From: Candidatus Multivorans sp.
GTDB taxonomy: Bacteria > Acidobacteriota > Thermoanaerobaculia > Multivoradales > Multivoraceae
DNA length: 64,000 nt
Direction: 5' to 3'
NCBI GenBank assembly: GCA_965247095.1
Contig: OZ251997.1
Location: 736,001-800,000, forward strand
This document shows positions 7,354 through 63,151 of this stretch, piece by piece. Every line of letters begins with the position of its first letter. The stretch's first letter is position 1. The position numbers and the translations under genes are program-made. The notes below the pieces were generated by a model. It made no database searches. It had not been told where the DNA came from and saw nothing but the letters and a program-made list of their open reading frames with translations.

Positions 7354-7374
7354 AGTCGCTTCGGAGCGCGATCG

Positions 7375-8376: not shown

Positions 8377-8390
8377 GAGCGGGAGCGGAC

Positions 8391-12619: not shown

Positions 12620-12623
12620 GTCG

Positions 12624-22032: not shown

Positions 22033-23214
22033 ATGGCCTCTCATCCAGCAACCGTCGACTCCCATCCGGCGATCATCGAATCGACCCTTCGCGAAGGCGA
22101 GCAGTTCGCCAACGCCTTCTTCGACAGTGAGCAGAAGGTGGAGATCGCGTCCCTGCTCGACGCGTTTGGGGTCGAGTACCTCGAGCTCACTTCGCCGGCG
22201 GCCAGCCGTCGCAGCCGGGACGACTGCGAACGCGTGGCGAAGCTCGGGCTCCGCGCGAAGGTGCTGACCCACACCCGCTGTCACCTGGGCGACGCGAAGC
22301 TGGCCCTCGAAACCGGCGTCGACGGCATCGACGTCGTGTTCGGCACCTCCCGCTACCTGCGGGAGTACTCGCACGGCAAGAGCATGAACGAGGTGATCGA
22401 GACCGCGGTCGAGGTCGTCGAGTACATTCGGTCGCACGATGTCGAGGTCCGCTTCAGCACCGAGGACTCGTTCCGCAGCGAGCTGGCCGACCTGATCCGC
22501 GCCTACCGGGCCGTGAACGCCGTCGGCGTGAACCGCGTGGGCGTCGCGGACACCGTCGGCGTCGCGAGTCCCCGGCAGGTCTACGACCTGGTTCGCCGGC
22601 TGCGCCAGGAAGTGGACTGCGATATCGAGTTCCACGGCCACAACGACACCGGTTGCGCGGTGGCCAACGCGTTCTGCGCCCTGGAGGCGGGGGCGACGCA
22701 CGTCGACACGTCGGTGCTCGGGATCGGCGAGCGGAACGGCATCACGCCGCTCGGGGGCCTGGTGGCGCGCCTCTACGCGGAGGATCCGGAAGCGATTCGC
22801 GCGCGCTACGACCTGCCGCTGCTGCGCGAGATCGAGAACTACGTCGCCTCCCTGGTCGAGGTCGACGTGCCGTTCAACAACTACATCACCGGCTACACGG
22901 CGTTCACGCACAAGGCGGGCATTCACGCGAAGGCGATCCTCAACGATCCGTCGAGCTACGAGATTCTCGATCCGGCGGACTTCGGGCTCGACCGGTACGT
23001 TCACGTCGCCCACCGGCTGACCGGGTGGAACGCGATCAAGTCCCGCGTCGAGCAGTTGCGGCTCGAGCTCAGCGATGCGCAGATCAAGGAAATCACCGCG
23101 CACATCAAGGCGCTGGCGGACGAGAAGCCGCTCAGTCTCTCGGACGTGGACACGCTGCTGCGCAACTACCACACGGCGGCGCCGGCGCCGGCGGTCGCCG
23201 GAGCGACCGGGTGA
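22033..23214 (+). CDS. Homocitrate synthase (Lys21/Thermus Hcs type)
   Basis: [70 protein letters not shown]. Confidence 0.92.
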
Positions 23215-24566
23215 GCGAGTCCGGTCGGCCGGCCGACACCGCCCGCGCCTTCGCGCAGAAGGCTCTGGCCCGGGCCAGCGGCCTGGAGACGGTGGCGGTC
23301 GGCGAGATCGTTGACGCGCGTCCCGACATCGTGCTCAGCCACGACAACACGGCGCCGATCGCCGAGATCTGGCGGCAGTTCGGGCAGTCGCGGGTCGCGA
23401 TTCCGGAGAGGATGGCCGTCACCCTCGACCACGCGGTGCCCGCGCCGACCGTGCGTCACGCCCAGAACCACGCAGAAGTTCGCGCCTTCGTCGCCGAGCA
23501 GGGCGTGGGCCACTTCTTCGAAATCGGTCGCGGCATCTGCCACCAGGTCCTGAGCGAGGAGGCGATTGTGCTGCCGGGCGACACCATCCTCGGCTCGGAT
23601 TCCCATACCCCGCACTTCGGCTGGCTGGGGGCGTTCGGCGCCGGCGTCGGCCGCAGCGAGATGGCCGTGCTGTGGGCCACCGGCGAACTCTGGCTGCGGG
23701 TGCCGGAGTCGCTGCGAATCCGGCTCGAGGGCGTGCTCGGCGAGTGGGTGACGACGAAGGACGTGGCGCTGACGCTGATCGGCGACCTGGGCGCCGACGG
23801 CGCGCTCTACCGCAGCGTCGAGTTCAGCGGTCCGGGGATCGCGACCCTGAGCCTCGACTCCCGCGCGGCACTGGTCAACATGATGGCCGAGATGGGGGCC
23901 AAGAACGCCTGGATGCCGCCGGACGGGGCTGTGTTCGACTACCTGGCGGAGCGTCTCATCGCGCGTCCGGGCCGGCGCCCGGGCCGCGGTGCTGAGTCGG
24001 GCGAGACCGCGGCCGAGGTTGCGGCGCGACTTGAGGAGCGGGCCCTCTACCCCGATCCAGACGCTGAATACGCGGCCGAGCACCGGCTCGATCTGTCCAC
24101 GGTGGAACCCCGGGTGGCGCGCCCGCACCAGGTGGACGACACGGTCCCGGTCGGGGAACTCGATTCGGTACGGGTGGGCCAGGCGTTCATCGGCACATGC
24201 ACGAACGGCCGCCTTGAGGATCTCGGCGCGGTTCACCGGGTGATGGCGGGGCGGCGCACCGCTCCGGGCACCCGGATGGTCATCGTCCCGGCCTCGAGCG
24301 AGGTCTGGAGCGAGGCCCTGGCGCGCGGCTGGGTGGCCGACCTGGCGGCCGCCGGCGCCGTCTTTGGGACCCCGGGCTGCGGCCCGTGCATGGGCAACCA
24401 CCTCGGCGTGCTGGCGCCGGGCGAGGTCTGCATCTCGGGCGCCAACCGGAACTTTCAGGGGCGGATGGGCGACCGCGGCGCGGAGATCTACCTCGCATCG
24501 CCCGCCGTCGTCGCGGCGAGCGCCGTCGCCGGCCGGATCGTCCACCCGCGGGAGGTGGTCGGGTGA
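23211..24566 (+). CDS. Homoaconitase / 3-isopropylmalate dehydratase-type large subunit
   Basis: [48 protein letters not shown]; GTG start overlaps the hcs stop. Confidence 0.9.
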
Positions 24567-25216
24567 ACGGCCCGGTCGATGTCGGGCGACCGTTCCGGGG
24601 CCGGGTCTTCCGTTACGGCGACCACGTGAACACGGACGTCATATTCCCGGGCCGCTACACCTACACGAAGAGCCGGCCGGAGGAGGTCGCGCCCCACGCG
24701 CTCGAGGACCTCGACCCGACGTTCGTTGCGCGTGTGCGGTTGGGCGACGTGATCGTCGCCGGCTGGAACTGGGGCTGCGGCTCGAGCCGCGAGCAGGCCG
24801 CGGTGTGCCTCCGCTACGTCGGGGTCGGCGCGGTGATCGCCCGGAGCTTCGGGCGCATCTTCTACCGCAACGCGCTGAACAACGGCCTGCTCGCGATCGT
24901 CTGCCCGGAGGCCGTCGATGCGTTGGAGGAGGGCGCGGAGGTGGAGGTCGATCTCGAGGGGTCGGTGATCCGCTGCCTCGGTGACTCCGAGTCCGCGAGC
25001 GCGGCTTCCGCACCTGGGCACCCGGGTGGCGCGACCTCATCCGGATCCGCGCGGCAACAGTTCGTCTTCGTCGAGTTCAGCCCCGCCGTGCGTTCGATGA
25101 TCGCGGCCGGCGGCCTGATCGAACAGACGAAGCGGCGCCTGGCGGCGAGCCCTGGCAAGGCGGGCGTCCCGCCCGGGCCTGGGAACGCGGGCGTCTCGCC
25201 CGCATCCGGCGATTGA
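24563..25216 (+). CDS. Homoaconitase / LeuD-type small subunit
   Basis: [37 protein letters not shown]. Confidence 0.9.
25178..25211 (+). repeat. REP-like palindromic repeat family A (34 bp)
   Basis: CCTGGGAACGCGGGCGTCTCGCCCGCATCCGGCG; identical inverted copy at 36050-36083, 2-mismatch copy at 25590-25623, degenerate copies at 25151-25177 and 27172-27234. Confidence 0.85.
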
Positions 25217-25228
25217 GATGACCCCCTC

Positions 25229-26329
25229 ATGAACTCCGCCACTCAGCCCATCCGCCTCGCCCGCATCGGCGGCGACGGCATCGGCCCCGAGGTTGTGGAC
25301 GCGGCGGTGCGGGTCGTTGACGCGGTCTGGGGCGGCGGGGTGGAATGGGTCGAAGCCGAGATGGGCTGGCATACCTTCGAGAGCACCGGCAGCGCGCTTC
25401 CGGAGGCAACAGTCGATCTCCTCGAAGGCTGTGCCGGCGCGCTGTTCGGCGCCGTCTCGTCGCCGAGCCATGCGGTGGCCGGGTATCGCAGCCCGATCGT
25501 CGAGCTGCGGCGGCGCCTCGATCTCTTCGCGAACGTGCGGCCGCTCCGCGCGATGGCTGGCGCGGACGGCTCCGACGCCGGCTCTCCGACCTGGAAACGC
25601 GGGCGTCTCGCCCGTATCCGGCGAAGTCCTGGCCGTTGGCCCGCAGTCGACGCCGTCGTCGTGCGCGAGAACACCGAGGGCCTCTACTCCGGCCGGGAGC
25701 ATTGGGAGAGCGAGGGCGAGGTAGCGATCGCCGAGCGGGTGATCAGCCGTGCCGCGACGGAACGGATCGCCCGCTTCGCCTGCGAACTGGCGACGTCACG
25801 CGCGGCCTCACATGGCAGGCCGGCCCGGCTCACCGTCGTCCACAAGGCGAACGTCCTACGCCTGAGCGACGGCCTGTTCCGCGAGACGGCGCTCGACGTC
25901 GCGGCCGGCTTTCCGGAGGTCGAGGTCGAGGAGCAACTCGTTGACTCCATGGTCTACCGGCTCATCCTGGAGCCGGAGCGCTACGACGTGATCGTGGCGC
26001 CGAACCTCTACGGCGACATTCTGAGCGACGCCGGCGTCGCCCTGGTCGGTGGATTGGGCGTAGTCGGCTCCGCCAACTGCGGCGAGCGCTTCTGCCTCGC
26101 CGAACCGGTCCACGGCAGCGCGCCGGACATCGCGGGGCAGGGGATCGCGAATCCGATCGCCGCAGTGTCCGCCGCGGCTCTGCTGCTGGAGCGAGTGGGC
26201 CTGGTGGACGGGGCCGCCCGTCTTGAGCGACTTCTTGCCGACCACCGCGCGGACGGACTGAGGACCCCCGACCGCGGCGGCGCGGCGACGACGGAGGAGG
26301 CGGTCGCGGATCTGCTGGCGCGGGTGTGA
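25229..26329 (+). CDS. Homoisocitrate / isopropylmalate dehydrogenase family
   Basis: GDGIGPEV, LFGAVSSP, Y.SPIV.LR, RENTEGLY, VHKANVL, PNLYGDILSD, EPVHGSAPDIAG. Confidence 0.9.
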   Translation: MNSATQPIRLARIGGDGIGPEVVDAAVRVVDAVWGGGVEWVEAEMGWHTFESTGSALPEATVDLLEGCAGALFGAVSSPSHAVAGYRSPIVELRRRLDLFANVRPLRAMAGADGSDAGSPTWKRGRLARIRRSPGRWPAVDAVVVRENTEGLYSGREHWESEGEVAIAERVISRAATERIARFACELATSRAASHGRPARLTVVHKANVLRLSDGLFRETALDVAAGFPEVEVEEQLVDSMVYRLILEPERYDVIVAPNLYGDILSDAGVALVGGLGVVGSANCGERFCLAEPVHGSAPDIAGQGIANPIAAVSAAALLLERVGLVDGAARLERLLADHRADGLRTPDRGGAATTEEAVADLLARV

Positions 26330-26430: not shown

Positions 26431-26745
26431 ATGATCGATCAGGAGACGCTCGACGAGATCATCCGGCGCGTCGTGGAGGCGGCCGAACCAGAGAGGATCG
26501 TCCTGTTCGGGTCCGCTGGGCGCGGCGACATGGGGCCGCACAGCGACGTGGACTTGCTGGTGGTTGCCAAGGGCGGTGATCGCTGGGATGTCACGACACG
26601 GGTCTATGAGCGGTTGGCAGGTGTGGGCGTGCCAGTCGACGCCGTCCTCGTGACGCCGGCGGATCTGGAGCGCTACAAGGACAGCCTCGGACTGGTCTAC
26701 AAGCCAGCCCTGGCTGAGGGACGGGTCGTGTATGAAGCCGCCTGA
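26431..26745 (+). CDS. Minimal nucleotidyltransferase (MNT) antitoxin
   Basis: LFGS..RG.....SDVDLLVV. Confidence 0.9.
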   Translation: MIDQETLDEIIRRVVEAAEPERIVLFGSAGRGDMGPHSDVDLLVVAKGGDRWDVTTRVYERLAGVGVPVDAVLVTPADLERYKDSLGLVYKPALAEGRVVYEAA

Positions 26746-38902: not shown

Positions 38903-40162
38903 CTAGATGCCGGGCACCGGGAAGCGCAGGCAGAATCTCTCGATGTCCTGCCGCATGGCGTCCAGCCGTTCGTCGTCGCCGTGCCGTCGCAACGCGTCGA
39001 CGATCCACTCGGCGAGCAGCTTCATCTCGACTTCTTCCATGCCCCGCGTGGTCGCCGCGGGACTGCCGAGCCGGATGCCGCTCGGCCTGAGCGGCGGCCG
39101 GGGGTCGTCGGGGATGAGTTGCTTGTTCACCGTGATCGACACCTTGTCGAGGGTCTCTTCGGCGACGCGTCCGTCGATGCCGTAGCTCTTCTCGGTGTCG
39201 AGCACCATCATGTGGTTGTCGGTGCCGCCCGTCACCAGTTCGGCGCCCCGGTTGATCAGTTCCTCGGCCAGCACCTTCGCGTTGGTCAGCACCTGCCGGG
39301 CGTAGACCGCGAACTCGGGCTCGAGCGCCTTGCCGAGGGTGATCGCCAGCGCCGCCACGGCGTTCATGTGGGGTCCGCCCTGGAGGCCCGGGAACACCGC
39401 CTTGTCGATCTTCCGGCGGTGCTCCGCGCGGCAGAGGATCAGGCCGCTGCGGGGCCCGCGCAGGGTCTTGTGGCCGGTCGTCGTCATCACGTCGAAACCG
39501 TGGTCCATCGGGTTGGACATCGCGTTGCCGGCGATCAGACCGCCGATGTGCGATACATCGGCCATCGTGAGCGCGCCGACGTCGTCCGCGATCCGCTTGA
39601 ACTCGCGGTAGTCGTAGTCCCGCGGATAGGACGAGTAGCCGCAGAGGATCATCTTCGGCTGGTGCTCGCGGGCCTGGCCGAGTAGAGCGTCGAAGTCGAT
39701 CGCGCCGGCGTTGTCGGGATCCGTCTTGTAGCGGATGAAGTTGAAGACCCTGCCCATGTGGGACACCGGCGCCCCGTGCGTCAGGTGGCCACCGTGCGAA
39801 AGGTCCATCGCCAGCACCGTGTCGCCGGGGTCGAGGAACGCGAAGTAGGCCGCCTGGTTCATCGGCGAGCCCGAGAGCGCCTGCACGTTCGCGTGCTCGG
39901 CCCTGAACACCCGGCAGGCGCGTTCGATGGCCAGCCGCTCGACCGCGTCGGTGAACTCCTGCCCGCCGTAGTAGCGGCGGCCGGGGTAGCCCTCGGCGTA
40001 CTTGTTGGTCAGCACCGAGCCGTTGGCCGCGAACACCTCGGGGTAGGTGTAGTTCTCCGATGGAATCAGCTCGACGCCGCGTCGTTCGCGGTCTTCCTCG
40101 CCAATAATCGCCGCCCAGACCGCTGGATCGTTGCGCGCCAGCGCCTGTCGGTTGGAATCCAC
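38903..40162 (-). CDS. glyA: Serine hydroxymethyltransferase
   Basis: ELIPSEN, NKYAEGYPGRRYYGG, GGHLTHG, TT.HKTLRGPR, FPGLQGGP, SGIRLG. Confidence 0.96.
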   Translation of the reverse strand: MDSNRQALARNDPAVWAAIIGEEDRERRGVELIPSENYTYPEVFAANGSVLTNKYAEGYPGRRYYGGQEFTDAVERLAIERACRVFRAEHANVQALSGSPMNQAAYFAFLDPGDTVLAMDLSHGGHLTHGAPVSHMGRVFNFIRYKTDPDNAGAIDFDALLGQAREHQPKMILCGYSSYPRDYDYREFKRIADDVGALTMADVSHIGGLIAGNAMSNPMDHGFDVMTTTGHKTLRGPRSGLILCRAEHRRKIDKAVFPGLQGGPHMNAVAALAITLGKALEPEFAVYARQVLTNAKVLAEELINRGAELVTGGTDNHMMVLDTEKSYGIDGRVAEETLDKVSITVNKQLIPDDPRPPLRPSGIRLGSPAATTRGMEEVEMKLLAEWIVDALRRHGDDERLDAMRQDIERFCLRFPVPGI

Positions 40163-40219
40163 TGCGCTTGTGCTACTTCCCGGCCCGGGCCGGGGCTGAA
40201 CTCCGATCCGCCGTAGCCC

Positions 40220-40846
40220 TTACTGGACGGCCGCCTTGGCGGCCTCGAGCAGGACGGTTTCCGGCAGGCGAACCCTGTAGTCCGGATTCACGTAGTGGAA
40301 AGCGATCCGACCCTCGGTATCGAGCACGAAGACGGCAGGCACGGGCAGCATGTGGTGATCGTCCCCGGCGTAGTCTTCGAGGTCGAGCTTGTAGGACTCC
40401 CTGTAGCTCCGAACGATCTCCTCGTCGCGGAAGGCGATCCCGAACGCCTGCGAGGCCTTCATGCCCCGGTCGGAGAGCAGCCGGTACTTCAGCTCGTTCT
40501 TGTGGACGGTGGCCTGCAGTTGGTCCGCGATATCTGGTGAGATGGCGAACAACTGGTAGCCGAGGTTGATCAGATCCTGCTCGATTTCTTGCAACTGACC
40601 CAGTTGCGTATTGCAGTACGGTCACCAACCGCCGCGGTAGAAGATCAGGATCGTCGGCTTGGCCTTGGCCTCGGCGGCAAGGTCGACGACGCCGCCGTCC
40701 GCGGTGGGAAGTTGGACCTCGGGAACTGCACTGCCGACCAGAAGCGGTCGGATGCCGTCTGCCGACGTGGGAACATCGGCGGCCGAGGCGGAAGTAGCGG
40801 TGGCGCAGAGGAGAGCCGCGCCGGCAAGAATCGTCTGGGTTCTCAT
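40220..40846 (-). CDS. Peroxiredoxin-like (AhpC/TSA) selenoprotein, UxxC motif, with signal peptide
   Basis: Two in-frame ORFs join across TGA 40624-40622 to give FYRGGW-U-PYCNTQL...AISPD...LLSD...PVPAVF...YVNPDYRVR; hairpin just downstream of the UGA. Confidence 0.85.
40591..40607 (-). promoter_or_regulatory. Putative bacterial SECIS element
   Basis: GCAACTG-GGT-CAGTTGC perfect 7-bp stem with a G-containing loop, separated from the in-frame UGA by 14 nt. Confidence 0.7.
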
Positions 40847-40964
40847 GCGCGGCAGGGTATCACGCGGCCACTGTGCCGGAAGCGCCAATTCGCAGCGGCG
40901 GGCTTGATCCCTGCCGCGGTTGACGCACCGCTACCGGGTCCGCATACTCGCCGCGGTCCGGCCC

Positions 40965-41444
40965 ATGAACCATGACACCTACCGCAGCCTGATCGGCCGC
41001 TTCGCCACCGGCGTGACGGTGGTGACGACGAACGTCGGCGGCCGCCTGCACGGCATGACCGCGAACGCGGTGTGCTCGCTGTCGCTCGACCCGTTGCAGT
41101 TGCTCGTCTGTGTCGACCGAGAGTCGAATTGCTACGTGCAGATGCAGCGAGCGGAGGCCTTCGGCATCAACATCCTCGCCGCCGACCAGGAGGACATCTC
41201 CAACCGGTTCGCTCGCACCACGGAACCCACCGATGGCTCCCTGCTGGGTGTGGACTACCGGCTCGGCAGCCTGGGTGAACCCCTGATCGAGAATGCGCTG
41301 GTCCACCTAGAGTGCCGGATCGCGGAGCGTATCTGTGGCGGCGACCACATCATCGTGATCGGTGACGTGGTGGCCGGCGGGCAGGTGCGGGAGGCCGAAC
41401 CGTTGCTCTTCTACGGCGGCCGCTACGCCAGATTGGGAGATTGA
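40965..41444 (+). CDS. Flavin reductase family protein
   Basis: FATGVTVVT, GMTAN...SLSLDP, GGDH.I..G.V, PLLFY.G.Y. Confidence 0.92.
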   Translation: MNHDTYRSLIGRFATGVTVVTTNVGGRLHGMTANAVCSLSLDPLQLLVCVDRESNCYVQMQRAEAFGINILAADQEDISNRFARTTEPTDGSLLGVDYRLGSLGEPLIENALVHLECRIAERICGGDHIIVIGDVVAGGQVREAEPLLFYGGRYARLGD

Positions 41445-51783: not shown

Positions 51784-53151
51784 TCAGGAGGGTCGGCCGA
51801 ACACCTTGGGCGTCGGCATCCGGGCGCGGATTGCGTCGAGTTCCTCGACCGTCACGGTCGAAATGCCGCTCTTCAGGCAGTGGGATTCCACCGAGCGGAC
51901 GACCATGCCGCGAACGAAGGCCGGCACCCGCTTCATCCGCGCTTCCGCCTCGGGCGCCCAGGCGATGCTGGTGGAGGTGTTCTCGCCGTAGCGGGAAAGG
52001 GACGCGAGCCCGGTTCGGTCCCCGAACGCCGCGAGTTGTTCTGGCGAGAAGGAACCGGGGTCGTGGGTGCACAGCGGATCTTCCGCCATCAGGTCGCCGG
52101 TCATGCCGTAGGCGCGGGCGCGGCAGCCACCGCAGACCGACTGCAGCTCGCAGGAACCGCAGCGTCCGCCGAGGTCCTTGCGGCGCCGGATGTCCTGGAA
52201 CAGGTCGGAGTCGTTCCAGACCGCGGACAGCGTCGAGCGCTTCAGGTTGCCGCCGAAGACGGGCAGGTAGGGGCACGGCGTGACATCGCCGTTCGGGCGG
52301 ATCCCCATGTAGTGGGTGCCGGCCGGGCAGCCGCCGGCGCCGCCGTCGAAGGCCTTGAGGAAGGGCGAGTCGGGATCGCCGGACAGCAGTTGACGAACGT
52401 AGTGCGGCGCGCACTTCGCGTTGACCACCATGCGGCCGCGGTAGTTGCGCTGAATCTGTTCCAGGGAGGCGAGGACCTCGTCGTAGTCGGACGGCGAGAG
52501 ATCGGACACGAACTGGCCGCGACCCGTGGGCACCAGGAAGTAGAGGTTCCAGACCCGGGCCTGGAGTTCGGTATAGGCGAACTCGGCGATCTCCTCCAGT
52601 TCCCCGAGGTTGTGTGCCCCGGCGGTGGTCTGGATGATGAAGGGAAGACCGGCTGCGGCCAGGTGCCGGGCGCCGTCGACCGTGTTCTGCCAGGCGCCGC
52701 GGACGCGGCGGAAGCCGTCGTGGACCGCCGGGTCCAGCGCGTCCAGCGACAGGGCGAGACCGCGGACTCCTTCGCCGGCCAGGATGCGGGCCAGGTTCTC
52801 GGTGATCCGGACGCCGTTGCTGCCGACCACGACCCACAGATCGCGCTCGGCGGCGTAGCGGACGATGTCGAGGATGTCGCGCCGCAGCAGCGGCTCGCCG
52901 CCTGTGAGGATGACCAGGGCCTCGGGCGCGAACTCGCAGATGTCGTCGATCACCTTCCGGCACTGGTCGGTGGAGAGTTCCGAGCGGTCGGCGAAGTTGG
53001 CGGTCTCGACCAGCGGCTTGCCGCCGGCGTCGAGGTAGCAGTGCTCGCAGGCCAGGTTGCAGCGGTAGGTCAGATTCCAGGAGATCACGTAGGGGCGGGC
53101 GAACGCCGTCGGCGTGGCGCTGGTCGGCCGTTCGAGGGGTGACAGGGTCAT
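51784..53151 (-). CDS. Radical SAM/SPASM enzyme (NirJ/AhbD-like) with C-terminal PCP_red-like domain
   Basis: WNLT..CNLACEHC, TGGEPLLR.D, LVPTGRG, CPAG...G.V.PC...C..C...CGGCRARA...EDPLC; tail W.PEAE.R..RVP.FVR. Confidence 0.88.
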   Translation of the reverse strand: MTLSPLERPTSATPTAFARPYVISWNLTYRCNLACEHCYLDAGGKPLVETANFADRSELSTDQCRKVIDDICEFAPEALVILTGGEPLLRRDILDIVRYAAERDLWVVVGSNGVRITENLARILAGEGVRGLALSLDALDPAVHDGFRRVRGAWQNTVDGARHLAAAGLPFIIQTTAGAHNLGELEEIAEFAYTELQARVWNLYFLVPTGRGQFVSDLSPSDYDEVLASLEQIQRNYRGRMVVNAKCAPHYVRQLLSGDPDSPFLKAFDGGAGGCPAGTHYMGIRPNGDVTPCPYLPVFGGNLKRSTLSAVWNDSDLFQDIRRRKDLGGRCGSCELQSVCGGCRARAYGMTGDLMAEDPLCTHDPGSFSPEQLAAFGDRTGLASLSRYGENTSTSIAWAPEAEARMKRVPAFVRGMVVRSVESHCLKSGISTVTVEELDAIRARMPTPKVFGRPS

Positions 53152-53175
53152 GGCGAGAGCCTGGTGCGAACCCGA

Positions 53176-53652
53176 TCAGGCGATGCCGAAGAAGGAGCGG
53201 GCGCGCTCCAGCACGCCCGCGTCGACCTCGTCGTAGCCATGGTCGAGAGCGAACTTCTCGATTCCGGCGACCGCCGAAGTGCGCACGATGTCGGGGATGT
53301 TCGCCAGCCGTTCGCGGGCCTCGGCGGTCCAGGGGATGCCTCCCGATTCACCGTTGCCGGTAACGCTTGGGCTGCCAACTTCGTCTTCGGACTGGGTAGT
53401 CGGCATGCCCATCTCGGCCAGCATGCCGGTAAAGGGACACTTCGAGGATGTCGCCCCGGCCTCCGTGCCGGTCTCGGGGCCGATCCGCACGCCGAGGGCG
53501 CCGACCACCTGGGTCTCGTGGGGATTGGTCATCATCGCCATCTCGGCAGAGCAGGTGGGACAGGCATAGACCAGGGCGACGGAACCGCCATCGGGGCCCA
53601 GGGCGTGCTTCAGCTTCATCTGCTCGTCGCAGGGTACGCAGAGGAATTTCAT
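53176..53652 (-). CDS. Small Cys-rich protein (CxxC/CxxC, CPF) with PCP_red-like domain
   Basis: MKFLCVPCD...CPTC...NP.ETQ.V, KCPF, WT.EA..RL..IP..VR......IE..A...G; AAGGA RBS. Confidence 0.8.
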   Translation of the reverse strand: MKFLCVPCDEQMKLKHALGPDGGSVALVYACPTCSAEMAMMTNPHETQVVGALGVRIGPETGTEAGATSSKCPFTGMLAEMGMPTTQSEDEVGSPSVTGNGESGGIPWTAEARERLANIPDIVRTSAVAGIEKFALDHGYDEVDAGVLERARSFFGIA

Positions 53653-53674
53653 CCTTGGTCTCAGTCGGCGGAAA

Positions 53675-54547
53675 TCAGGTCGTCTTGGCGAGGCAGTTCA
53701 GGATCGAAGCCGCGGCCTCGTCGATCGCGCGGAGGACCGGTCCTGGGGCCAAGTCCGCTTCACCGGCATCGGAGGCCGCAGCCAGTCGCGGGTCGAACGG
53801 TACCTTAGCCAGGCAGGGGAGTCCAAGCGCGGGCGCTTCGCCGGCCGCGCCATCGAACAGGGGGCGGACCCCGTCGCAGGTTCCGCAGTAGTAGCCGCTC
53901 ATGTTTTCGATGTACCCGAGCACCTCGTTCGGCGTCGTGCCGAGCGCCGCCGCCGAGCGCGCAACGACCCCGCGTGCCAGCGCGGCAGGAATCGTGACGA
54001 GCACGAAGCGCGCGGCCGGTCCAAGGACCTCGGCGTACTGCAGGGTACGCTCGGCGCCGGGCGGCAGGTCGACCAGGAGAAAATCGAGACGACCCCAGTC
54101 CACCAGGCCGAGCAACTGCTGGAACAGGTTGAACTCGCGGGTTGCGCGCCAGACGTGGGAGTCGCCCTTCGCGACGCTCTCGAACTCGAGGTGCTCCGAT
54201 TCGGGCACCATGGAGCCCACCGACACCACTCCGAGGCCATGAGGCGTGCGGGGCAGGGCCATGCCCCGATCGCCAGGCAGCAGCGGAACGTGTTCCAGTC
54301 CGGCCAGCCGGGCCTGGCAGGGTCCGTTCAGGTCGGCATCGAGGATCGCGCATTGGAGTCCCGCGCGCCCGAGCGCCAGAGCGAGCTGCATGGTCAGGGT
54401 GCTCTTGCCGACGCCTCCCTTGCCCGAACCGATGGCGACCACATGGTCGATGCCGGCCGTGGCCTCGGCGATGCGCTCCCGCTGCTGGAGAACCTGCCCG
54501 AGAACGTCGGAACCGCCGTCTCCGGCGACGTCGAAGTAGGTCCTCAT
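53675..54547 (-). CDS. Mrp/NBP35 (ApbC) P-loop ATPase, Fe-S carrier
   Basis: SGKGGVGKST, LDADLNGP, W..LD.L.VDLPPG, ENMS.Y.C..C, PFDP. Confidence 0.88.
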   Translation of the reverse strand: MRTYFDVAGDGGSDVLGQVLQQRERIAEATAGIDHVVAIGSGKGGVGKSTLTMQLALALGRAGLQCAILDADLNGPCQARLAGLEHVPLLPGDRGMALPRTPHGLGVVSVGSMVPESEHLEFESVAKGDSHVWRATREFNLFQQLLGLVDWGRLDFLLVDLPPGAERTLQYAEVLGPAARFVLVTIPAALARGVVARSAAALGTTPNEVLGYIENMSGYYCGTCDGVRPLFDGAAGEAPALGLPCLAKVPFDPRLAAASDAGEADLAPGPVLRAIDEAAASILNCLAKTT

Positions 54548-55392
54548 GGCCGGCGGACGCGGTCGAGAAGGCCGGTTCGTCTCGCCAAAGAGCTTGCCTC
54601 GGCGCGCAGCCGCCCACGGAGGTCGAGTTCCGGAAAGGCGGCGCGCTGAAAGATGAGCCCATCGTTCACGATCCAGGGGCGGCTGCGACCGAAGGCGTGA
54701 CGATGTCTCTTCATGTAGACGAGTTCGAAACCGTTCTTCGCAAGCAGGCCGACCAGCTCCAGAGGACGGATACCAAACTGCCAGTACCAATGGTTGTCCC
54801 GCTCCAGCCGTCCGTCCTCGTCGCGGTGGTCATGCTTGTCAAACCACGCCTCCAGCCTGGCGCGCGTGTTCCAATGGTCTTCCCAAACGTAGACATTCTT
54901 GTAGTACCAGTCCAGGCCGCGATCGACAAACCGTATGGTCCGTGCAGTCTTCAACCAGTTCTGATTGAAGACAATCAGAACGTCGGTATGCGGCAGCCAG
55001 TTCAGCAGGAACCTGTCCCAGTCCGGCTTGACCTGATGCAGCAGGATGTCGTACATGATGAGGGCATCGACCTCACCTACCGCGTCGAGCGCCTGCTGTG
55101 AGCCGAGCATCGCCTCGACGAGCTCCACTCTGGGATGTTCCTTCGCGCGCTCCTGGGTCAGAGGAGTCAGGTTGCCGTCGACGATCACCGCTCTCCCGAG
55201 CTCGTTTCCGCAGAGTTCGGCGGCGTGGAACGTGTAGGCGCCGTCGACGCCCCAGCAGGCGCCAAGGTCGGCGAAGGACCGGAAGTCGGTGAGCTCGTAG
55301 GCCGTCTCGAGCAGCTCGAGTTTCTCCGGTTTTGGCTGAACCTCGGACTGCGCTCCGACTGGCATTTCTTCGGAGCTGAGGCGGGCGAACAT
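54544..55392 (-). CDS. Hypothetical protein, possible class I SAM methyltransferase fold
   Basis: ADLGACWG motif I-like, D...YD.LLH; stop overlaps the mrp start; more AT-rich than neighbours. Confidence 0.55.
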   Translation of the reverse strand: MFARLSSEEMPVGAQSEVQPKPEKLELLETAYELTDFRSFADLGACWGVDGAYTFHAAELCGNELGRAVIVDGNLTPLTQERAKEHPRVELVEAMLGSQQALDAVGEVDALIMYDILLHQVKPDWDRFLLNWLPHTDVLIVFNQNWLKTARTIRFVDRGLDWYYKNVYVWEDHWNTRARLEAWFDKHDHRDEDGRLERDNHWYWQFGIRPLELVGLLAKNGFELVYMKRHRHAFGRSRPWIVNDGLIFQRAAFPELDLRGRLRAEASSLARRTGLLDRVRRP

Positions 55393-55428
55393 GGGGGCAG
55401 CCTAACAGGGGGAGGCGACGCTAGCTGG

Positions 55429-56358
55429 TCACGACCGAGCGGCGTCACTTTCGTATCGAAGGGTCTTCCGCGCCGCCTGGAAGCCGCAGTCTTCGAGCCG
55501 ATCCGCCAGTGGTTCGCGGCGGTGCACCCGCGGCAGGTAGAGCGGTCGTTTGCAATCGTTGGCGGCGAAGGCGAGGAGCGGCCCAAGAAGAGCCGGCACC
55601 GGCCGCTTGCCGCCGATCGCGAGGATCTCGCAGGGTGTGGAGCCGGCGGGCAGGCCGGCGGCCGATCTGGAAACCGGCGGCCGGGCGATGAACGGCAGGG
55701 GGTCGTCGGCGTCCTGGGCGCTTCGATAGAGGAGATAGGCCTCGAAGCCGCGGTCGGTGGCGATGCCGACGCCCAGTGCTCGCTCGCGCAGGTTGCGGAT
55801 CGTCTGGGCGGAGCGCTGCCAGCAACGATTCAGTTCCGAGGCATCGGCGAACTCGGCACTGGCTGTGATCTCCGACGGGGCAACAGTCCCGACCAGGTCG
55901 AGGAAGGGGCCGGCCGCGGGCCTCGCGGACTGCTGGATGTAGTCGATGAGGGTTTCTGCTTCGGCGAAACCGCAGGCCCTGAGGAAACGGTGGGCGGCAA
56001 CGGCCTCCGCCGGGACTTCGACGAGCATGCGGGTCGGCTCGAGGATCGCCATCTTCTGGCTGAGCGAAGTCATCATGTGGCGGGCATGGCCCTGCCGGCG
56101 GTGGTCCGGGTGGACCGCAACGTGGAGCACGAGGCTGGCCGTGGGCTCTCGCTTCGCCGCGATCAGCACGCCGATCGGGTCGCTGCCCGCGAACGCGACC
56201 ATGCAACTGCTGGTCCAGAGGTTGATCTCCCTGGAGAGCCGCTTCATGTGGTCGACTGTGAGCCGCCACGGGACGGCGCCGGGTCCCACGTTGCAGCGGT
56301 GGAACGCCTCGACGATCAGGGGCACGTCGTCAGAGCGGCAGAAGCGGTACGCAGGCAC
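55429..56358 (-). CDS. GNAT family N-acetyltransferase
   Basis: VAVHPDHRRQGHA acetyl-CoA binding motif, LEV...A..F...CGF-like segment; start uncertain. Confidence 0.75.
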   Translation of the reverse strand: MPAYRFCRSDDVPLIVEAFHRCNVGPGAVPWRLTVDHMKRLSREINLWTSSCMVAFAGSDPIGVLIAAKREPTASLVLHVAVHPDHRRQGHARHMMTSLSQKMAILEPTRMLVEVPAEAVAAHRFLRACGFAEAETLIDYIQQSARPAAGPFLDLVGTVAPSEITASAEFADASELNRCWQRSAQTIRNLRERALGVGIATDRGFEAYLLYRSAQDADDPLPFIARPPVSRSAAGLPAGSTPCEILAIGGKRPVPALLGPLLAFAANDCKRPLYLPRVHRREPLADRLEDCGFQAARKTLRYESDAARS

Positions 56359-56362
56359 CGGC

Positions 56363-57733
56363 CTACTCGGTCCGCGGGCCGGCAGGCGCCCCAAGCGCGG
56401 CCGGAGCGGGGGGCGCGCCGGTCGGCGCCTGCTCCGGCAGGCGCAGCAGCGCGAGGATCAGCATGGCGGAAACGTACATGGAGATGAAGACGGTGAAGGC
56501 GAGGTCGTAGCTCCCGAAGCGGTCGAAGACGTACCCCGCGAAGGGTACGCCGAGGATCTGGATCGGCAGAAGCATCGGGCTCATCAGACCCATGACCCGG
56601 CCGAACGATCGCCGTCCGAAGCAGGCGCCGATCAGCGTCCCCCAGAGGGGCATCATCCCGCCCATGCCGAGTCCGAAAACCGCCGCGGCGCCGATCAAGG
56701 CCGGGTAACTCTCGGCCCGGAGCAGGGCCGTTGTGCCGGTGGTCTGCAGACCGATCGCCAGCCACAACGCGCCGCGGCTGCTCAAACGATCGCCGATCCA
56801 ACCGAACACGACCTTGCCCAGCACGCCCATCGCGGCGATGGCGGAGAGGCTGAAAGCGGCCCGGATCGGTGCGAAACCCAGGTCCGTGGCGTGGGCGATG
56901 ATGTGGGTGAGAATCGCCGAGTTGGAGCAGAAGTTCATCGACACCACCAGGGCGATGACCCAGAAGTTGCGGTTGGCGAGGGGCTCGACCCAGTCGAGGC
57001 GCCGGCGCCTCGGCGGCGCGCCGGCGAACGTCGGGGCCGGCGCGACCGGTTCGACTCCGGCCGGGCCTTCACCCGGGGCAGGGGTCGGGGTCCATTCCGG
57101 CGCCATGGAGGTCGCGTCTCCGTCGGGGTGCAGGCCGATGTCCTCCGGCCGGTCGACGACCCAGCGGCGCACCGCCGGCAGCACGAACAGCAGGGTCAGC
57201 GCGCCGTAGAGCACGAACGTGCCACGCCAGCCGATCAGCCCGATCAGCCGGGTGGCGACGGGCGCCATGACGACGCCGGACAGGGAGATGCCCATCGTGG
57301 CTATGCCCAGAGCCATGGAGCGCCGGCGAACGAACCAATTGGCGACCAGGGTCGACGCGGTCACGCCTCCGACCAGGGCGGCCCCCAGGGCCAGGAAGGT
57401 GCCGAGGACGAGGTAGAACTGGACCAGGTTCTGGACCGTGGCGGTCAGCAGGAGTCCGGTCGCCAGCAGCCAGACGCCGGCCGTCATCGTCCGCTTGGCG
57501 TGGCCGTGGTCCAGGGCGTGCCCCAGGAAGGGCGCGACCAGGCCGTTGGTGATGCCGAAGACGGCGAGGCCGATGCCGACGCCCGTTCGCCCGCCGCCGA
57601 ACTCGGCTGTCAGGGCGACGAAGAAGACGCCGAAGGAGTAGAAGCCGAAGCCGACCGAGACGAAGAGCGACAGGAAGCAGACGCCGATGATCTTCCAGCC
57701 GTGGAAGACCGCGCTGGCGGGAGGGGGCCGCAA
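56363..57733 (-). CDS. MFS transporter (OFA/monocarboxylate-like)
   Basis: FHGW.I, NWF.RRR..ALGI, P...GL.PDG, GWIGDR, FG...FG...G, 12 TM pattern. Confidence 0.88.
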   Translation of the reverse strand: MRPPPASAVFHGWKIIGVCFLSLFVSVGFGFYSFGVFFVALTAEFGGGRTGVGIGLAVFGITNGLVAPFLGHALDHGHAKRTMTAGVWLLATGLLLTATVQNLVQFYLVLGTFLALGAALVGGVTASTLVANWFVRRRSMALGIATMGISLSGVVMAPVATRLIGLIGWRGTFVLYGALTLLFVLPAVRRWVVDRPEDIGLHPDGDATSMAPEWTPTPAPGEGPAGVEPVAPAPTFAGAPPRRRRLDWVEPLANRNFWVIALVVSMNFCSNSAILTHIIAHATDLGFAPIRAAFSLSAIAAMGVLGKVVFGWIGDRLSSRGALWLAIGLQTTGTTALLRAESYPALIGAAAVFGLGMGGMMPLWGTLIGACFGRRSFGRVMGLMSPMLLPIQILGVPFAGYVFDRFGSYDLAFTVFISMYVSAMLILALLRLPEQAPTGAPPAPAALGAPAGPRTE

Positions 57734-57767
57734 GCTGCTAAGCCAGCAGGTCGTCCAGCCTGAGAAC

Positions 57768-59933
57768 TCAGGCTTCCGGTTCGCCGGCCTTGCGCTTCTC
57801 GTCGAGTGCCGACATCAGGCCGACCTCGTTCAGGTACGTGCCGGCCTTCGCGTCCTTGGCCGCCTCGACCTGTGCCTTGCTCGCGCCGGCTTCGGCGAGA
57901 GCGGAGAAGGGACACCGTCCGGCGGCTGTCGCGGCCTTCGTCTCGGCATCGGCGACCTCGGTCGCCTGGGTCCCTTCGCCCTTGCCGATCTCGTAGGCCG
58001 CGATCATCTGCTCCATCAGTTCGTGGCCCAGTTCGATGCCCTCTTCGACGGTCTTGATCCCGATCCGCGAGATGTGCTTCTCGCGGGCCACCAGCTCGAC
58101 GCGCTCCTGGGTCCGGTCCCGCATGAAGCCGGCGGGCACCCGGAGAATGCGGGAGGTGGCGTCGGCCGTCCACTCGTAGCTCGAGAGCAGCGGCACCCGA
58201 TCGCCGTCGCGGGCGATCAGCTTCCGCTCGTCGGATGCCGCTTCGGTGGCGCCGTTGTCGTTCGTTGCGGCCGCCTGCTCACGGGCCTCGATCGTCACCG
58301 GCTCGCCGGTCTCGTCCTCGATCTGCGCGCGGGCGAACTCGAAGGTGACGGTCGGCAGCTTGCTCATCCGCGCCTTCTTCTCGATCCGGGCCTTGGCGCG
58401 ACGGCGCCGGTACAGGTCCTCGATCGTCTTGAGGGCCAGACGGGCGTCCGCGGTCCACTTCAGCTTGCGGCCGTCGTAGGTCATCTCGACTTCCAGACCG
58501 CCTTCCATCTCGGCGATCCGTTCGAGCATCTCCTCGGTGATCTGCTCGAAGGACTTAGCTCCGCAGACGCCGCAGCGGACCGGATCCGGCTCGGCCGAGG
58601 TCACGCCGCACTTGCGGCAGATGAAGGTGGGCCGGCTGCGCGCGAGCTGCAGGCCGACCTGCTCGGCCAGCGCCTCCGTCTCGCGAGCGGTGTACTTGGG
58701 CATGTAGCGGTCCATCGCCTCGTCCAGCACGTCGCTCGAGATCACGCTGTGGCCCTGCTCGACCGCCAGCCGGTAGAGCGCGGTGCGGGCGATGCCGCGC
58801 ACCTGCTCGGGGACGCGCTTGAAACGCTCCTCGGCCTCGGGCGTCCAGCGGATGCTCTCCTCGGCCTTCACGTCGAGTTCCGGGTACTCGAGACGCGTGG
58901 TCAGCAGGAGGTCGCAGGGGCAGGAGCGGAGAAGGTTCTCGGCGTTGCTGCCGAGGCCGGTCTCGTTCTCGTCGCTGTGGACGCCGATGCGGCCGATGAC
59001 CAACATCCAGGGATCGATCTTGCGGGCGTGGTCGAGGACCTTCTGGAACGCTTTGCCGTCGAGCAGGGTCTTCGTCAACTCGACCCCGACCTCGGTCGCC
59101 ATCGTCTCGGCGACGTCCAGGTGGGACTGGTAGATCTGCGCCAGGCCGGTATCGATGATCTCTTCGTGGAGCTGGTTCTGCTCCTCGAAGCGGAAGACCT
59201 TCGCGGCCCGCTCGGTCAGCACGTTGACCACGCCCTTGAACACCGAGTAGTGCAGGTACGGGTCGTAGACCGAGATCGCCTCGACCTTCTTGCCGAACCG
59301 CTCGGCCAGGTCGATGGCGGTCATCAGAGCGCCGAAGGACTGGGGCGAGCCGTCGACGCCGACCAGGATCGTGTCGCGGCCGTCGGCCTCGGCTTCTGCG
59401 TGGTTGCCGTTGCCGTTGCCGTTGCTCCCCGAAACTCGGGCCGGCAGGCGCTTGATCACCAGCACGTCCTTGTCGGCGCTGCGGGCCACCCGCTCGCAGA
59501 CCGAGCCGATCTGCGTGTCGCGGACGCGGCCGATGCCCATCACGCCGAGCACCGTCAGGTCGTAGCCGGACTCGCGGATGTCGCGCACGATCTCGACGTG
59601 GTGCTTGCCGTCCATCATCTTCGGCTCGAACTCGAGGTCGGCTTCGTCGCAGACGGCCTTCATCGGCTCGAGGTAGCTCTCCGAGATGAGCTCCAGCCCC
59701 ATCGTGATCAGGGAGTCGTGGATCTTCCGCTGGCGGTCGAGTTCCGTCTCCTCGAGGTACTCCTCGGGCAGCGTGTACTCCATCTGCTTGAAGCGGTAGT
59801 CGTGCATGCTCGCCGCGTAGACGTGGCAGCCGACCATCCTGGAGTCGAACTTCCGGCCCAGTTCGACCGCGGAGGCGATTGCCTGGTTGGAGTAGTCCGA
59901 GTTGTCGAGCGGGACGTAGATCGTCTTGTACAT
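57768..59933 (-). CDS. Multidomain universal stress protein: 2x USP + 3x PCP_red-like + rubredoxin-like CxxC/CxxC + CPF
   Basis: MYKTIYVPLDNS and ILVGVDGS USP starts, IGSVCERV / LGSNAENL; three WT.(E/D)A repeats; CRKCG...CGVCG; RCPF. Confidence 0.85.
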   Translation of the reverse strand: MYKTIYVPLDNSDYSNQAIASAVELGRKFDSRMVGCHVYAASMHDYRFKQMEYTLPEEYLEETELDRQRKIHDSLITMGLELISESYLEPMKAVCDEADLEFEPKMMDGKHHVEIVRDIRESGYDLTVLGVMGIGRVRDTQIGSVCERVARSADKDVLVIKRLPARVSGSNGNGNGNHAEAEADGRDTILVGVDGSPQSFGALMTAIDLAERFGKKVEAISVYDPYLHYSVFKGVVNVLTERAAKVFRFEEQNQLHEEIIDTGLAQIYQSHLDVAETMATEVGVELTKTLLDGKAFQKVLDHARKIDPWMLVIGRIGVHSDENETGLGSNAENLLRSCPCDLLLTTRLEYPELDVKAEESIRWTPEAEERFKRVPEQVRGIARTALYRLAVEQGHSVISSDVLDEAMDRYMPKYTARETEALAEQVGLQLARSRPTFICRKCGVTSAEPDPVRCGVCGAKSFEQITEEMLERIAEMEGGLEVEMTYDGRKLKWTADARLALKTIEDLYRRRRAKARIEKKARMSKLPTVTFEFARAQIEDETGEPVTIEAREQAAATNDNGATEAASDERKLIARDGDRVPLLSSYEWTADATSRILRVPAGFMRDRTQERVELVAREKHISRIGIKTVEEGIELGHELMEQMIAAYEIGKGEGTQATEVADAETKAATAAGRCPFSALAEAGASKAQVEAAKDAKAGTYLNEVGLMSALDEKRKAGEPEA

Positions 59934-61816: not shown

Positions 61817-62634
61817 CAGTGCTGCCCCAGAGCGCGCGGCTCGTAGCCGTTGAAGTCGTAGATGAACAGGTTGACGTCCCACATCTCCTCGGTGGTGAGA
61901 AACTTCTCCCACGCCGGCATGGCGCTGTCCCAGGGGGTGCCCGCCGCAGGCAGACCGGGTCCGCCCATGGCGATCCGCCAGTGGACGAAGGAGGACTGCA
62001 GGATCGGCAGCGTGCCGACATCGTTGAAGTTGCTGGGCGCCGGGTTCAGGCCGTGGGCGAACATGCCGTCGCCGCCCATGCCGTCGCCGTGGCACCAGAA
62101 GCAGTTCTCGTAGTAGACGCGACGGCCGTTCTCCAGGTGCTCCTCGTACGCCTCCGGGTCGTCTTCGTGAAGGTGGGTGTACGGGTTGTCGGCGGTCGCC
62201 ATGTCGATCGTCTCGTCGTGGACCGTGATCTCCGTTGGCGGCGCCGGATGCACCTCGCGCCCGAATCCGGGCGCCTCGAGCGGTACGTTCATGTCCGCGT
62301 AGACGTTGTAGGCGGCCAGGGCGGGCAGCGCCACGAGTACCGCGGCCAGAAGCGGCCGGCGCCGTGGTTCAAGGATGAGCCGCTTGATCGGTACTGTGGT
62401 CTCGGACAGGCGCTCGCGGCTCGACGAGGCGTAGCAGACCAGAGCGAGCGTCGCGATCCCCAGGTAGATCGTCGCCACCGACTGCGGGATCGGTACGGCG
62501 AAGCCGAACTTGAAGAAGGCCCAGAGCGCGATCCAACTGAAGAGCAGCCAGGCGAGTGTGTTGGCCCGGCGCCAGGCCAGCACGCCGGCGACCGCGGCCA
62601 GGGCAAGAAGAACCGGTAGGTTGAGTCCCATCAT
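61816..62634 (-). CDS. Membrane-anchored monoheme cytochrome c
   Basis: N-terminal TM helices, R..HPAPP, ENCFWCHGD..G.G, WRI..GGPGLP...PW.SAMPAWE. Confidence 0.88.
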   Translation of the reverse strand: MMGLNLPVLLALAAVAGVLAWRRANTLAWLLFSWIALWAFFKFGFAVPIPQSVATIYLGIATLALVCYASSSRERLSETTVPIKRLILEPRRRPLLAAVLVALPALAAYNVYADMNVPLEAPGFGREVHPAPPTEITVHDETIDMATADNPYTHLHEDDPEAYEEHLENGRRVYYENCFWCHGDGMGGDGMFAHGLNPAPSNFNDVGTLPILQSSFVHWRIAMGGPGLPAAGTPWDSAMPAWEKFLTTEEMWDVNLFIYDFNGYEPRALGQH

Positions 62635-62665
62635 GATTGAGTCGGTTCCGTGAAGGTTCGGGGGC

Positions 62666-63151
62666 TCAGTAGCCGAGTTCGGCGTCCAGGGTCACGGACG
62701 GCGTTCCGCCCAGGCTCTGCAGCCAAGCGATCACGGCCTTGATTTCGTCATCGGAGAGATTGATCGGCGGCTCATTCATCGGCTGCATCCCGTCCTCGTA
62801 TCCGGGAACGACGAACTTCCCCGGTTCGTAGAGAGACTGCGCCAGATACTCGACATCGGACAGCCCCTCGATTCGCGTCGCCGCGCGCTGTCCGATACCA
62901 CCCAGATCCGGATAGCGGCTTGGTCCGCTGGAACCGATCTGGTGGCAGGCGGCGAGGCATTGACCCTTGCCGTTGGCCAGCTCGTTGCCGACCTCGATGA
63001 GATCCTCGGTCGTCATGTCGGCGTCGATCAGCACCGGCGGCGGAGGGTGTACTTCCTTCTGGGGCACGATCTGGCCCAGGTACATGTAGAAGGCCGTGGT
63101 GCCCAACACCAGGAGGACCATCTTGAGCGGCATCGGGACGTTCAGCTTCAT
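62666..63151 (-). CDS. Membrane-anchored cytochrome c with CxxxCH motif
   Basis: TM, VPQ....PP, GKGQCLAACH, R.PDL, EYL..SL..P..FVV.GY...M, EI.AVIA.LQS.GG. Confidence 0.85.
   Translation of the reverse strand: MKLNVPMPLKMVLLVLGTTAFYMYLGQIVPQKEVHPPPPVLIDADMTTEDLIEVGNELANGKGQCLAACHQIGSSGPSRYPDLGGIGQRAATRIEGLSDVEYLAQSLYEPGKFVVPGYEDGMQPMNEPPINLSDDEIKAVIAWLQSLGGTPSVTLDAELGY

Follow-up and report, generated by a model that had tools for sequence, protein, structure and literature searches.

We describe a gene on the minus strand (40220..40846) of a 64,000-nucleotide stretch of DNA from Candidatus Multivorans sp. (Acidobacteriota; contig OZ251997.1, positions 736,001 to 800,000), here called the window, in which an in-frame UGA at codon 75 very probably encodes selenocysteine (Sec, U). 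The product of this one gene would be an exported, thioredoxin-fold, 'Prx-like' (peroxiredoxin-like) thiol:disulfide oxidoreductase with the redox motif U75-P-Y-C78. An earlier reading of the window from its letters alone (the sequence-only reading) had proposed that the UGA is recoded as Sec, and comparison with relatives sustains that proposal: 37 of 80 related loci keep the TGA, a hairpin follows it in 38/38 TGA forms as against 1/39 forms with Cys at this position, and purifying selection acts on both sides of the codon.

Read on the minus strand, the frame opens with an ATG at 40846, closes with a TAA at 40222-40220 and is open between them except for the TGA at 40624-40622. The sequence at the site is GGT TGG TGA CCG TAC TGC AAT AC GCAACTG GGT CAGTTGC, and translation with TGA as U gives 208 residues (...FYRGGWUPYCNTQLGQLQ...); the window copy is without further stops or frameshifts. 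Translation table 11 splits the gene in two, as the sequence-only reading had noticed, with coordinates that are all correct when read on the minus strand: an open reading frame (ORF) of 88 amino acids (aa) ends ...FYRGGW, directly before the TGA, and a second ORF, of 124 aa, lies downstream. Its further point, that the frame continues past the TGA, is upheld by a 208-residue frame of which both halves are conserved as protein. The features discussed below are as follows.

40220..40846 (-): whole putative selenoprotein gene; one frame with TGA read as U, 208 codons plus TAA
40622..40624 (-): in-frame TGA read as Sec, residue 75, position 1 of UxxC; from translation and relatives
40613..40615 (-): TGC, Cys78, second (resolving) residue of UxxC; codon invariant in 38/38 TGA forms
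40591..40607 (-): hairpin of the bacterial selenocysteine insertion sequence (bSECIS) type, 7-bp stem GCAACUG/CAGUUGC, apical loop GGU; from fold and covariation
40553..40635 (-): candidate extended element, a possible lower helix plus reduced synonymous variation; from an RNAalifold consensus
40781..40846 (-): predicted Sec-pathway (export) signal peptide, residues 1-22, MRTQTILAGAALLCATATSASA; rule-based reading
40622..40888 (-): artefactual 88-aa ORF, the N-terminal fragment, ending at the TGA; from the table-11 ORF list
40220..40594 (-): artefactual 124-aa ORF with a TTG start within the 3' arm of the hairpin; from the table-11 ORF list, and the piece that public gene callers give

Conservation of the TGA and fold of the protein

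Pfam matches to AhpC-TSA (2.5e-26) and Redoxin (8.2e-19) run across the TGA, over residues 37-190. PF00578 (AhpC/TSA), the domain of the known Prx-like selenoprotein family, scores 92.5 bits against a cut-off of 26 over residues 37-183. In an end-to-end alignment with 16 full-length Cys homologs (47-57% identity) the TGA column holds Cys, in FYRGGWCPYC/FC (WCAYC in one); the earlier reading had placed the TGA at the first Cys of a CxxC motif and proposed just such an alignment, which bears it out. UxxC with Sec at the first-Cys column of CxxC homologs is likewise the motif by which that selenoprotein family is defined.

Public annotation does not show the protein in this form. In a search set of 5.8 billion proteins, all 22 matches listed at 81-98% identity are exactly 124 aa long and cover 59-60% of the query; these entries represent the downstream piece that gene finders predict. 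Full-length matches reach at most 58% identity, all come from other phyla and, where they are named, are called 'peroxiredoxin-like family protein' or 'AhpC/TSA family protein'; we take the former, an NCBI name, to correspond to the CDD group PRX_like2. The expectation that annotation pipelines would miss the gene is thereby met in full, since each of the 22 listed matches from 81% identity upwards is a 124-aa fragment and the NCBIfam selenoprotein models all score under their cut-offs.

With the window as reference, a search of genome contigs gave 80 related loci, of which 37 have TGA as the active-site codon and 43 have TGT or TGC. The sequence-only reading had itself raised the prospect of close relatives carrying TGC or TGT; all 34 loci at 80-96% identity (L001-L034) carry TGA, as do three distant acidobacterial loci, L035 (50%), L038 (57%) and L041 (56%). 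Every TGA locus is labelled Acidobacteriota, those of the close group as Candidatus Multivorans, Thermoanaerobaculia, Holophagales, Vicinamibacteraceae or Acidobacteria metagenome-assembled genomes (MAGs), and L038 as Candidatus Multivoraceae. The assemblies are independent, and many of those behind L001-L034 are closed chromosomes of 4-5 Mb. The 43 Cys-codon loci belong to Ignavibacteriota, Pseudomonadota, Bacteroidota, Planctomycetota, Verrucomicrobiota and others. Taxonomic labels of the MAG records are inconsistent: L012, though its label is Vicinamibacteraceae, has the syntenic block of the Candidatus Multivorans/Thermoanaerobaculia loci at 85% identity and nests inside their clade.

Residues 1-208 are matched (tblastn) in 25 of the 34 close loci; eight others end at 193-201, and L034 is matched over 64-208 only. 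Relative to the window, most of L002-L031 and L033 have nonsynonymous divergence (dN) of 0.08-0.17 and synonymous divergence (dS) of 0.40-0.76 over 48 codons upstream of the TGA, and dN of 0.03-0.10 and dS of 0.2-0.6 over 133 codons downstream. Both sides are under purifying selection and are kept as protein. Three copies are imperfect: L032 (about 7368-7968) has a frameshift upstream of the TGA, L034 (10001-10435) is homologous from residue 64, and L030 has TCG at the window's stop position, with its tblastn match ending at residue 193. Assembly errors or decay may lie behind these defects; all three copies retain the TGA and the hairpin, and they were left out of the synonymous-diversity analysis given below. 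In a quick tree, from which four Cys-form loci outside the motif pattern were left out, the Sec forms fall into a 35-row clade (support 100), L038 with L041 (95), and L035, three groups that lie in an unresolved polytomy with Cys forms. The tree may be compatible with one origin of the Sec forms, though it does not show it.

An AlphaFold2 model of the protein (mean predicted local distance difference test, pLDDT, 90.4; predicted template-modelling score, pTM, 0.84) has a thioredoxin/peroxiredoxin fold in which residue 75 stands immediately before helix 76-85, with an extra helical insert at residues 142-160. The closest folds in the PDB are BCP/PrxQ/AhpE peroxiredoxins at 14-22% identity (3hjp, Bcp4, template-modelling (TM) score 0.91 normalised to target), with ResA-type oxidoreductases (4nmu, 1st9) also among the matches. 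The top PDB sequence match, BCP 2cx3 (phmmer, 2e-06), aligns its SPVC with UPYC, setting the peroxidatic Cys against C78 and a conserved Ser/Thr against U75. Sec75 therefore takes the Thr/Ser position of the peroxiredoxin TxxC/TxxU motif in this alignment, which is not the arrangement of a true peroxiredoxin; such a correspondence of Ser/Thr with the first Cys is the known relation of thioredoxin-type CxxC to peroxiredoxin-type TxxC motifs. The Arg of KRAVF in BCP, presumably the catalytic Arg of peroxiredoxins, aligns with P170 of VPAVF, in a weak second segment of 2.7 bits. The protein thus appears to be Prx-like in fold and, as judged from UxxC and a likely cis-Pro, thioredoxin-like in chemistry; because the motif is UxxC, we assign it to the thiol:disulfide oxidoreductase type and not to the TxxC peroxidases. 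The earlier term 'peroxiredoxin-like' suits the fold; the motif, UxxC, is thioredoxin-type and distinct from the TxxC/TxxU of true peroxiredoxins.

Export via the Sec pathway is likely, judging from the N-terminus. The first 22 residues, MRTQTILAGAALLCATATSASA, followed by ADVP, comprise one basic residue, a hydrophobic core and A-S-A, with cleavage predicted by rule after A-S-A; read by eye they divide as MRTQ / TILAGAALLCATATS / ASA with cleavage before A, and show neither a twin-Arg motif nor, ahead of Cys14, a small residue of lipobox type. The M(R/K)T... start, the hydrophobic core and an A/V-x-A preceding A(D/E)VP recur in the relatives, and the full-length Cys homologs likewise begin with a hydrophobic segment. 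Residues 1-21 have low pLDDT in the model.

The hairpin downstream of UGA-75

The TGA is followed by a 14-nt spacer (40621-40608), a 5' arm (40607-40601), a GGT loop (40600-40598) and a 3' arm (40597-40591). Spacer and 5' arm together (14 and 7 nt) place the start of the loop 21 nt after the UGA, and this distance is the same in 38/38 TGA forms. This is the perfect hairpin GCAACTG-GGT-CAGTTGC, after a 14-nt spacer, that the sequence-only reading had picked out; it is real, it covaries and it fits the constraints on bSECIS elements. All 38 TGA forms, the window included, have an in-register stem of 7-8 bp (8 bp in L024, L038 and L041) with a loop of GGU in 35 and GGC in three. Among the 39 Cys forms, a stem of at least 7 bp in this register occurs once, in L047 (loop AGC), and L053 has a shifted stem with a 5-nt loop. 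The mean local folding energy is -9.1 kcal/mol for TGA forms versus -3.5 for the 39 Cys forms; the window hairpin itself has -8.9 kcal/mol (23-nt local segment) and the 8-bp variants -11.4 to -12.3.

Three stem variants occur, GCAACUG/CAGUUGC, GCAGUUG/CAACUGC (L035) and (C)UCAGCUC/GAGCUGA(G) (L038, L041). Across them, 84/84 cells of the alignment (A2) are paired, and four of the seven pairs have changed on both sides with none broken; the covariation score was reached by 0 of 500 shuffles, and sliding the partner by 1-3 columns leaves 8-43% of cells paired. In the window sequence alone the hairpin is suggestive: 27 of its 1383 TGA triplets (2.0%) precede a comparable hairpin, defined as a perfect 7-bp stem with G in the first two loop positions and a loop 16-37 nt downstream of the TGA, and folding of the 71-nt context is unremarkable (z = -1.24). 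It is its presence in 38/38 TGA forms and 1/39 Cys forms, together with the compensatory changes, that places it far beyond chance.

In the bSECIS model as outlined in PMC13188914, the loop has 3-9 nt, the stem 4-16 bp, the loop lies 16-37 nt from the UGA, the minimum free energy is at most -7.5 kcal/mol, and at least one G, usually G then G or U, occupies the first two loop positions. Measured against that outline, the element has a 3-nt loop on a 7-bp stem, 21 nt from the UGA, with GGU in 35 and GGC in three of 38 sequences and an energy of -8.9 against -7.5 kcal/mol. It resembles the fdhF-type SECIS of E. coli and the bSECIS consensus in being a hairpin just past the UGA within the ORF, with a small loop starting GG, at 21 nt and below -7.5 kcal/mol. 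The fdhF SECIS has a bulged U; the element described here differs from the fdhF type in its 3-nt loop and plain 7-bp stem without a bulge, and in a nucleotide constraint that seems to reach to about +66 nt (codons 89-96).

This last point concerns a candidate extended element. RNAalifold suggests a possible lower helix in which CUGGUG.CC around the UGA pairs with GG.UACCAG of codons 96-98. Its eight inner pairs are intact in 38/38 TGA forms, and they are also intact in 14/39 Cys forms, so that the helix largely follows from the conserved GGW and GYQ residues; we discounted it as evidence for recoding. Over 31 distinct close sequences, synonymous codon diversity is 0.223 gene-wide, 0.068 at codons 76-85 and 0.016 at codons 89-96, the two dips being the lowest 10-codon windows of the gene. 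Spacer and hairpin account for the first dip.

Codons 89-96 (40559-40582, minus strand; GAGCAGGAUCUGAUCAACCUCGGC) show less synonymous variation than any other stretch of the gene, a dip for which the SECIS hairpin does not account. It is tempting to speculate that a Cys ancestor within Acidobacteriota (Candidatus Multivoraceae and neighbours) gave rise to the Sec form, and that its recoding signal extends beyond the minimal hairpin, with the UGA placed in a long-range lower helix and nucleotide-level selection acting on codons 89-96 (about +40 to +66 nt). We consider this scenario unlikely as a whole. If true, it would mean an extended or composite SECIS, or an added element tuning Sec insertion versus termination, in an exported protein.

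Alternative readings of the UGA and a proposed mechanism

An in-frame stop in one sequence would ordinarily suggest a pseudogene, a recent nonsense mutation or a sequencing error. Such an explanation is scarcely credible here, and is refuted by a TGA present in 38 independent assemblies with protein identities as low as 50%, by dN/dS well below 1 on both sides and by a window copy that has no further stops or frameshifts; an artefact common to different projects and technologies is implausible. Genome-wide reassignment of UGA in the lineage, for example to Trp or Gly, has a vanishingly small probability as well. Nothing speaks for it beyond the in-frame TGA itself, and it is refuted by the 29 of 41 Pfam-supported window ORFs that end in TGA, with domain matches that fit these ends. 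TGA is the ordinary stop in this DNA, and the recoding is therefore local and not the mark of a changed code. When the window was scanned for further in-frame TGAs flanked by coding signal, adjacent genes sharing a frame were all that emerged, though the scan was insensitive, its filter on third-position GC content (GC3) having missed the target gene too. It is also highly improbable that the TGA is a real stop dividing the region into a 74-residue exported peptide and a separate 124-residue protein starting from the TTG at 40594. Table-11 calls do give precisely two ORFs and public callers report the 124-aa piece, but the break would fall inside the active-site motif, leaving strand 65-69 and the pre-active-site loop on one chain and C78 with the remaining fold on the other, and the Pfam domain match crosses the TGA. 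Moreover, L038 and L041 have CTG in place of the TTG and, by eye, no in-frame ATG, GTG or TTG in the 75 nt after the TGA, and a split gene would leave the covarying GGY-loop hairpin without a role.

A further possibility is that the UGA is decoded as an ordinary amino acid, with or without help from the hairpin: as Cys by a tRNA-Sec-like tRNA(Cys) acting as an opal suppressor, or as Trp or Cys by near-cognate read-through, in either case giving a CxxC-type protein. tRNA-Sec-like tRNA(Cys) species, possible opal suppressors, are described in deltaproteobacteria, and unusual suppressor-like allo-tRNAs in Acidobacteria, in the account given in PMC5389517, and no Sec machinery turned up in the DNA covered. 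However, a plain TGY codon would supply Cys at no cost, as it does in 43 of the 80 relatives; a UGA kept together with a GGY-loop, SECIS-type hairpin in 38 sequences is the signature of SelB-dependent insertion; and no suppressor tRNA was detected in the window or the loci scanned. We regard decoding as an ordinary amino acid as decidedly improbable, and Sec as clearly the best reading of UGA-75.

Several points nevertheless weigh against Sec at this codon or against parts of the wider proposal. The 38 hairpins are not independent: they represent three variants (a 35-sequence clade, L035, and L038/L041), so the covariation, though real, is shallow and rests on two or three evolutionary events. 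The Q-L-G-Q/E-L codons that form the stem have an inherent partial self-complementarity, and among the Cys forms L047 folds in register and L053 with a shifted 5-nt loop. Across the whole window at gathering thresholds, Rfam returns a SAM (S-adenosylmethionine) riboswitch elsewhere as its sole match; at the hairpin region it finds no family, SECIS included, and a permissive search of 40450-40750 gave one chance-level match to a long non-coding RNA (lncRNA). The proposed export derives from a rule-based reading of the N-terminus. Finally, no selA, selB, selD or tRNA-Sec was found in the DNA covered, stretches that are small parts of 4-5 Mb genomes. The remaining doubt about Sec stems from the fact that the Sec machinery of the host is not confirmed and that the support is wholly computational.

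The searches behind the last of these points were as follows. ARAGORN found no tRNA and Rfam no tRNA-Sec in the window; a Pfam scan of 54 window ORFs found no sel gene; ARAGORN on the 37 TGA-bearing loci returned tRNA-Ala and tRNA-Leu only, with no tRNA-Sec; and tblastn with E. coli SelA, SelB and SelD against the window and the 80 loci (1.43 Mb) gave no matches. These negatives do not count against a Sec trait, because too little of the genomes is covered. Sec use by Acidobacteria is on record in PMC1794560, where three families with four selenoproteins are given for the group. In the literature library consulted, no paper came up under Candidatus Multivorans, Multivoraceae or the names of the two species.

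We propose the following mechanism, in which SelB-dependent insertion, export and the choice of substrate and reductant are inferred. When a translating ribosome reaches UGA-75, the 7-bp GGU-loop hairpin 21 nt downstream would act as a bacterial SECIS and recruit SelB with GTP and Sec-tRNA(Sec), so that Sec is inserted in place of termination. The N-terminal signal peptide would send the unfolded chain through the Sec translocon and be removed by signal peptidase I. In the periplasm, the U75 selenolate at the N-terminus of helix 76-85 may attack a disulfide, or possibly a peroxide or sulfenic acid, and Cys78 would resolve the intermediate as a selenenylsulfide. Recycling might be carried out by a membrane reductant of the DsbD/CcdA type, named here as a candidate class only.

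Related proteins, genomic setting and meaning

Prx-like UxxC selenoproteins had been invoked as precedent by the sequence-only reading, and they are indeed a listed family. The entry in PMC13188914 for 'Prx-like thiol:disulfide oxidoreductase' (PF00578, UxxC/UxxU) counts it among prokaryotic selenoprotein families 'predicted with high confidence', and the marine GOS survey in PMC2398784 gives 'Prx-like 1' (pfam00578, UxxC) with 225 Sec sequences and 2,740 Cys homologs, among its abundant families. The gene shares with this family PF00578, UxxC with Sec first, abundant CxxC homologs, a coding-region stem-loop after the UGA and the lack of a characterised substrate. It differs in coming from Candidatus Multivorans and related Thermoanaerobaculia and in its predicted N-terminal signal peptide. 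The fit is by description (domain, motif, Cys homologs and SECIS) and not by comparison with the reference WP_010940744.1, and the gene may represent a separate subfamily.

Other known systems are more distant. True peroxiredoxins (BCP/PrxQ and AhpE, including the TxxU selenoprotein Prx) provide the best structural matches and, with 2cx3, the best sequence match, but at 14-22% identity and with a peroxidase arrangement where the present protein has a thioredoxin-type UxxC. ResA, TlpA and DsbE are, in a similar way, exported thioredoxin-fold CxxC proteins, kept reduced by a membrane electron relay, and give weak NCBIfam and PDB matches; scores here are far under the cut-offs, no cytochrome-maturation genes are adjacent, and the helical insert at 142-160 sets the present protein apart. 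All NCBIfam matches are sub-threshold: BCP-type thiol peroxidase reaches 50.8 of 140 bits, ResA 25.5 of 170 (1e-05), PrxU (NF040737) 19.6 of 270, which excludes membership, and WAxxUGC (NF041054) 17.8 of 300. The SelL-related redox model NF040769 is the second-best match (4.3e-11) at 42.8 bits against a cut-off of 120. SelL shares the Prx-like fold and a Sec-containing redox motif, but the score does not make the present protein a member and its motif is UxxC, where that of SelL is given as UxxU in PMC2398784.

Downstream of the gene, glyA follows on the same strand in L001-L034, beginning 57 nt past the stop in the window. After glyA come an enoyl-CoA hydratase and an MFS transporter in 33 loci; L020, a 3-kb contig, ends within glyA. 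A promoter and terminator scan of 39900-41200 found nothing on the strand of the gene, and no terminator-like site between the gene and glyA. Upstream, a flavin reductase gene in divergent orientation lies directly next to the gene in the window and L001, and most of L002-L030 and L032-L034 have about 4-5.5 kb of extra DNA between the two (before locus position 10001); the upstream sequence of L020, L023 and L029 is not long enough to judge, and L031 has no flavin reductase match. The neighbourhood gives no hint of substrate or reductant.

Elsewhere in the window, the SAM riboswitch (RF00162, 73.2 bits, complete model) lies at 754-878 on the minus strand, with the gene it would control downstream, near or beyond the window start. 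At 6169-15283 (+), a run of genes for a MoxR-type AAA ATPase, a DUF58 protein, two VWA proteins, TPR proteins, BatD and a TPR-SH3 protein resembles the Bat 'aerotolerance' operon. A homocitrate/isopropylmalate-synthase-like gene, aconitase large and small subunits and an isocitrate/isopropylmalate dehydrogenase stand in a row at 22033-26329 (+) and form an amino-acid biosynthesis cluster of the Leu or Lys (alpha-aminoadipate, AAA) type; ORF starts overlap here, as taking the first possible start codon over-extends ORFs. A PIN-domain protein (16823-17212, +) and a small nucleotidyltransferase (NTP_transf_2/Polbeta; 26431-26745, +) are presumably typical toxin-antitoxin components. Three neighbouring proteins with PCP_red domains (protochlorophyllide reductase 57 kD subunit-like) are encoded at 51784-59933 (-), one fused to a radical SAM/SPASM enzyme, one small and one fused to tandem universal stress protein domains, with a GNAT protein and an MFS transporter between their genes. 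A c-type cytochrome cluster follows at 60005-63151 (-), one member having an ethylbenzene-dehydrogenase-like (EB_dh) haem-binding domain.

Taken as Sec, UGA-75 would make this a genuine, conserved selenoprotein gene of an already known kind, wrongly annotated and with a bacterial SECIS that looks canonical, in a little-studied acidobacterial lineage. Our knowledge of selenoprotein families or of the recoding mechanism is not changed by it. What it does correct is a systematic annotation error, every public call seen for the clade being a 124-residue fragment without the active site, and it offers a clear example from nature of Cys/Sec interchange, with the SECIS confined to the Sec forms. It would also imply that Candidatus Multivorans and related Thermoanaerobaculia use selenium, which bears on their trace-element needs and redox biology.

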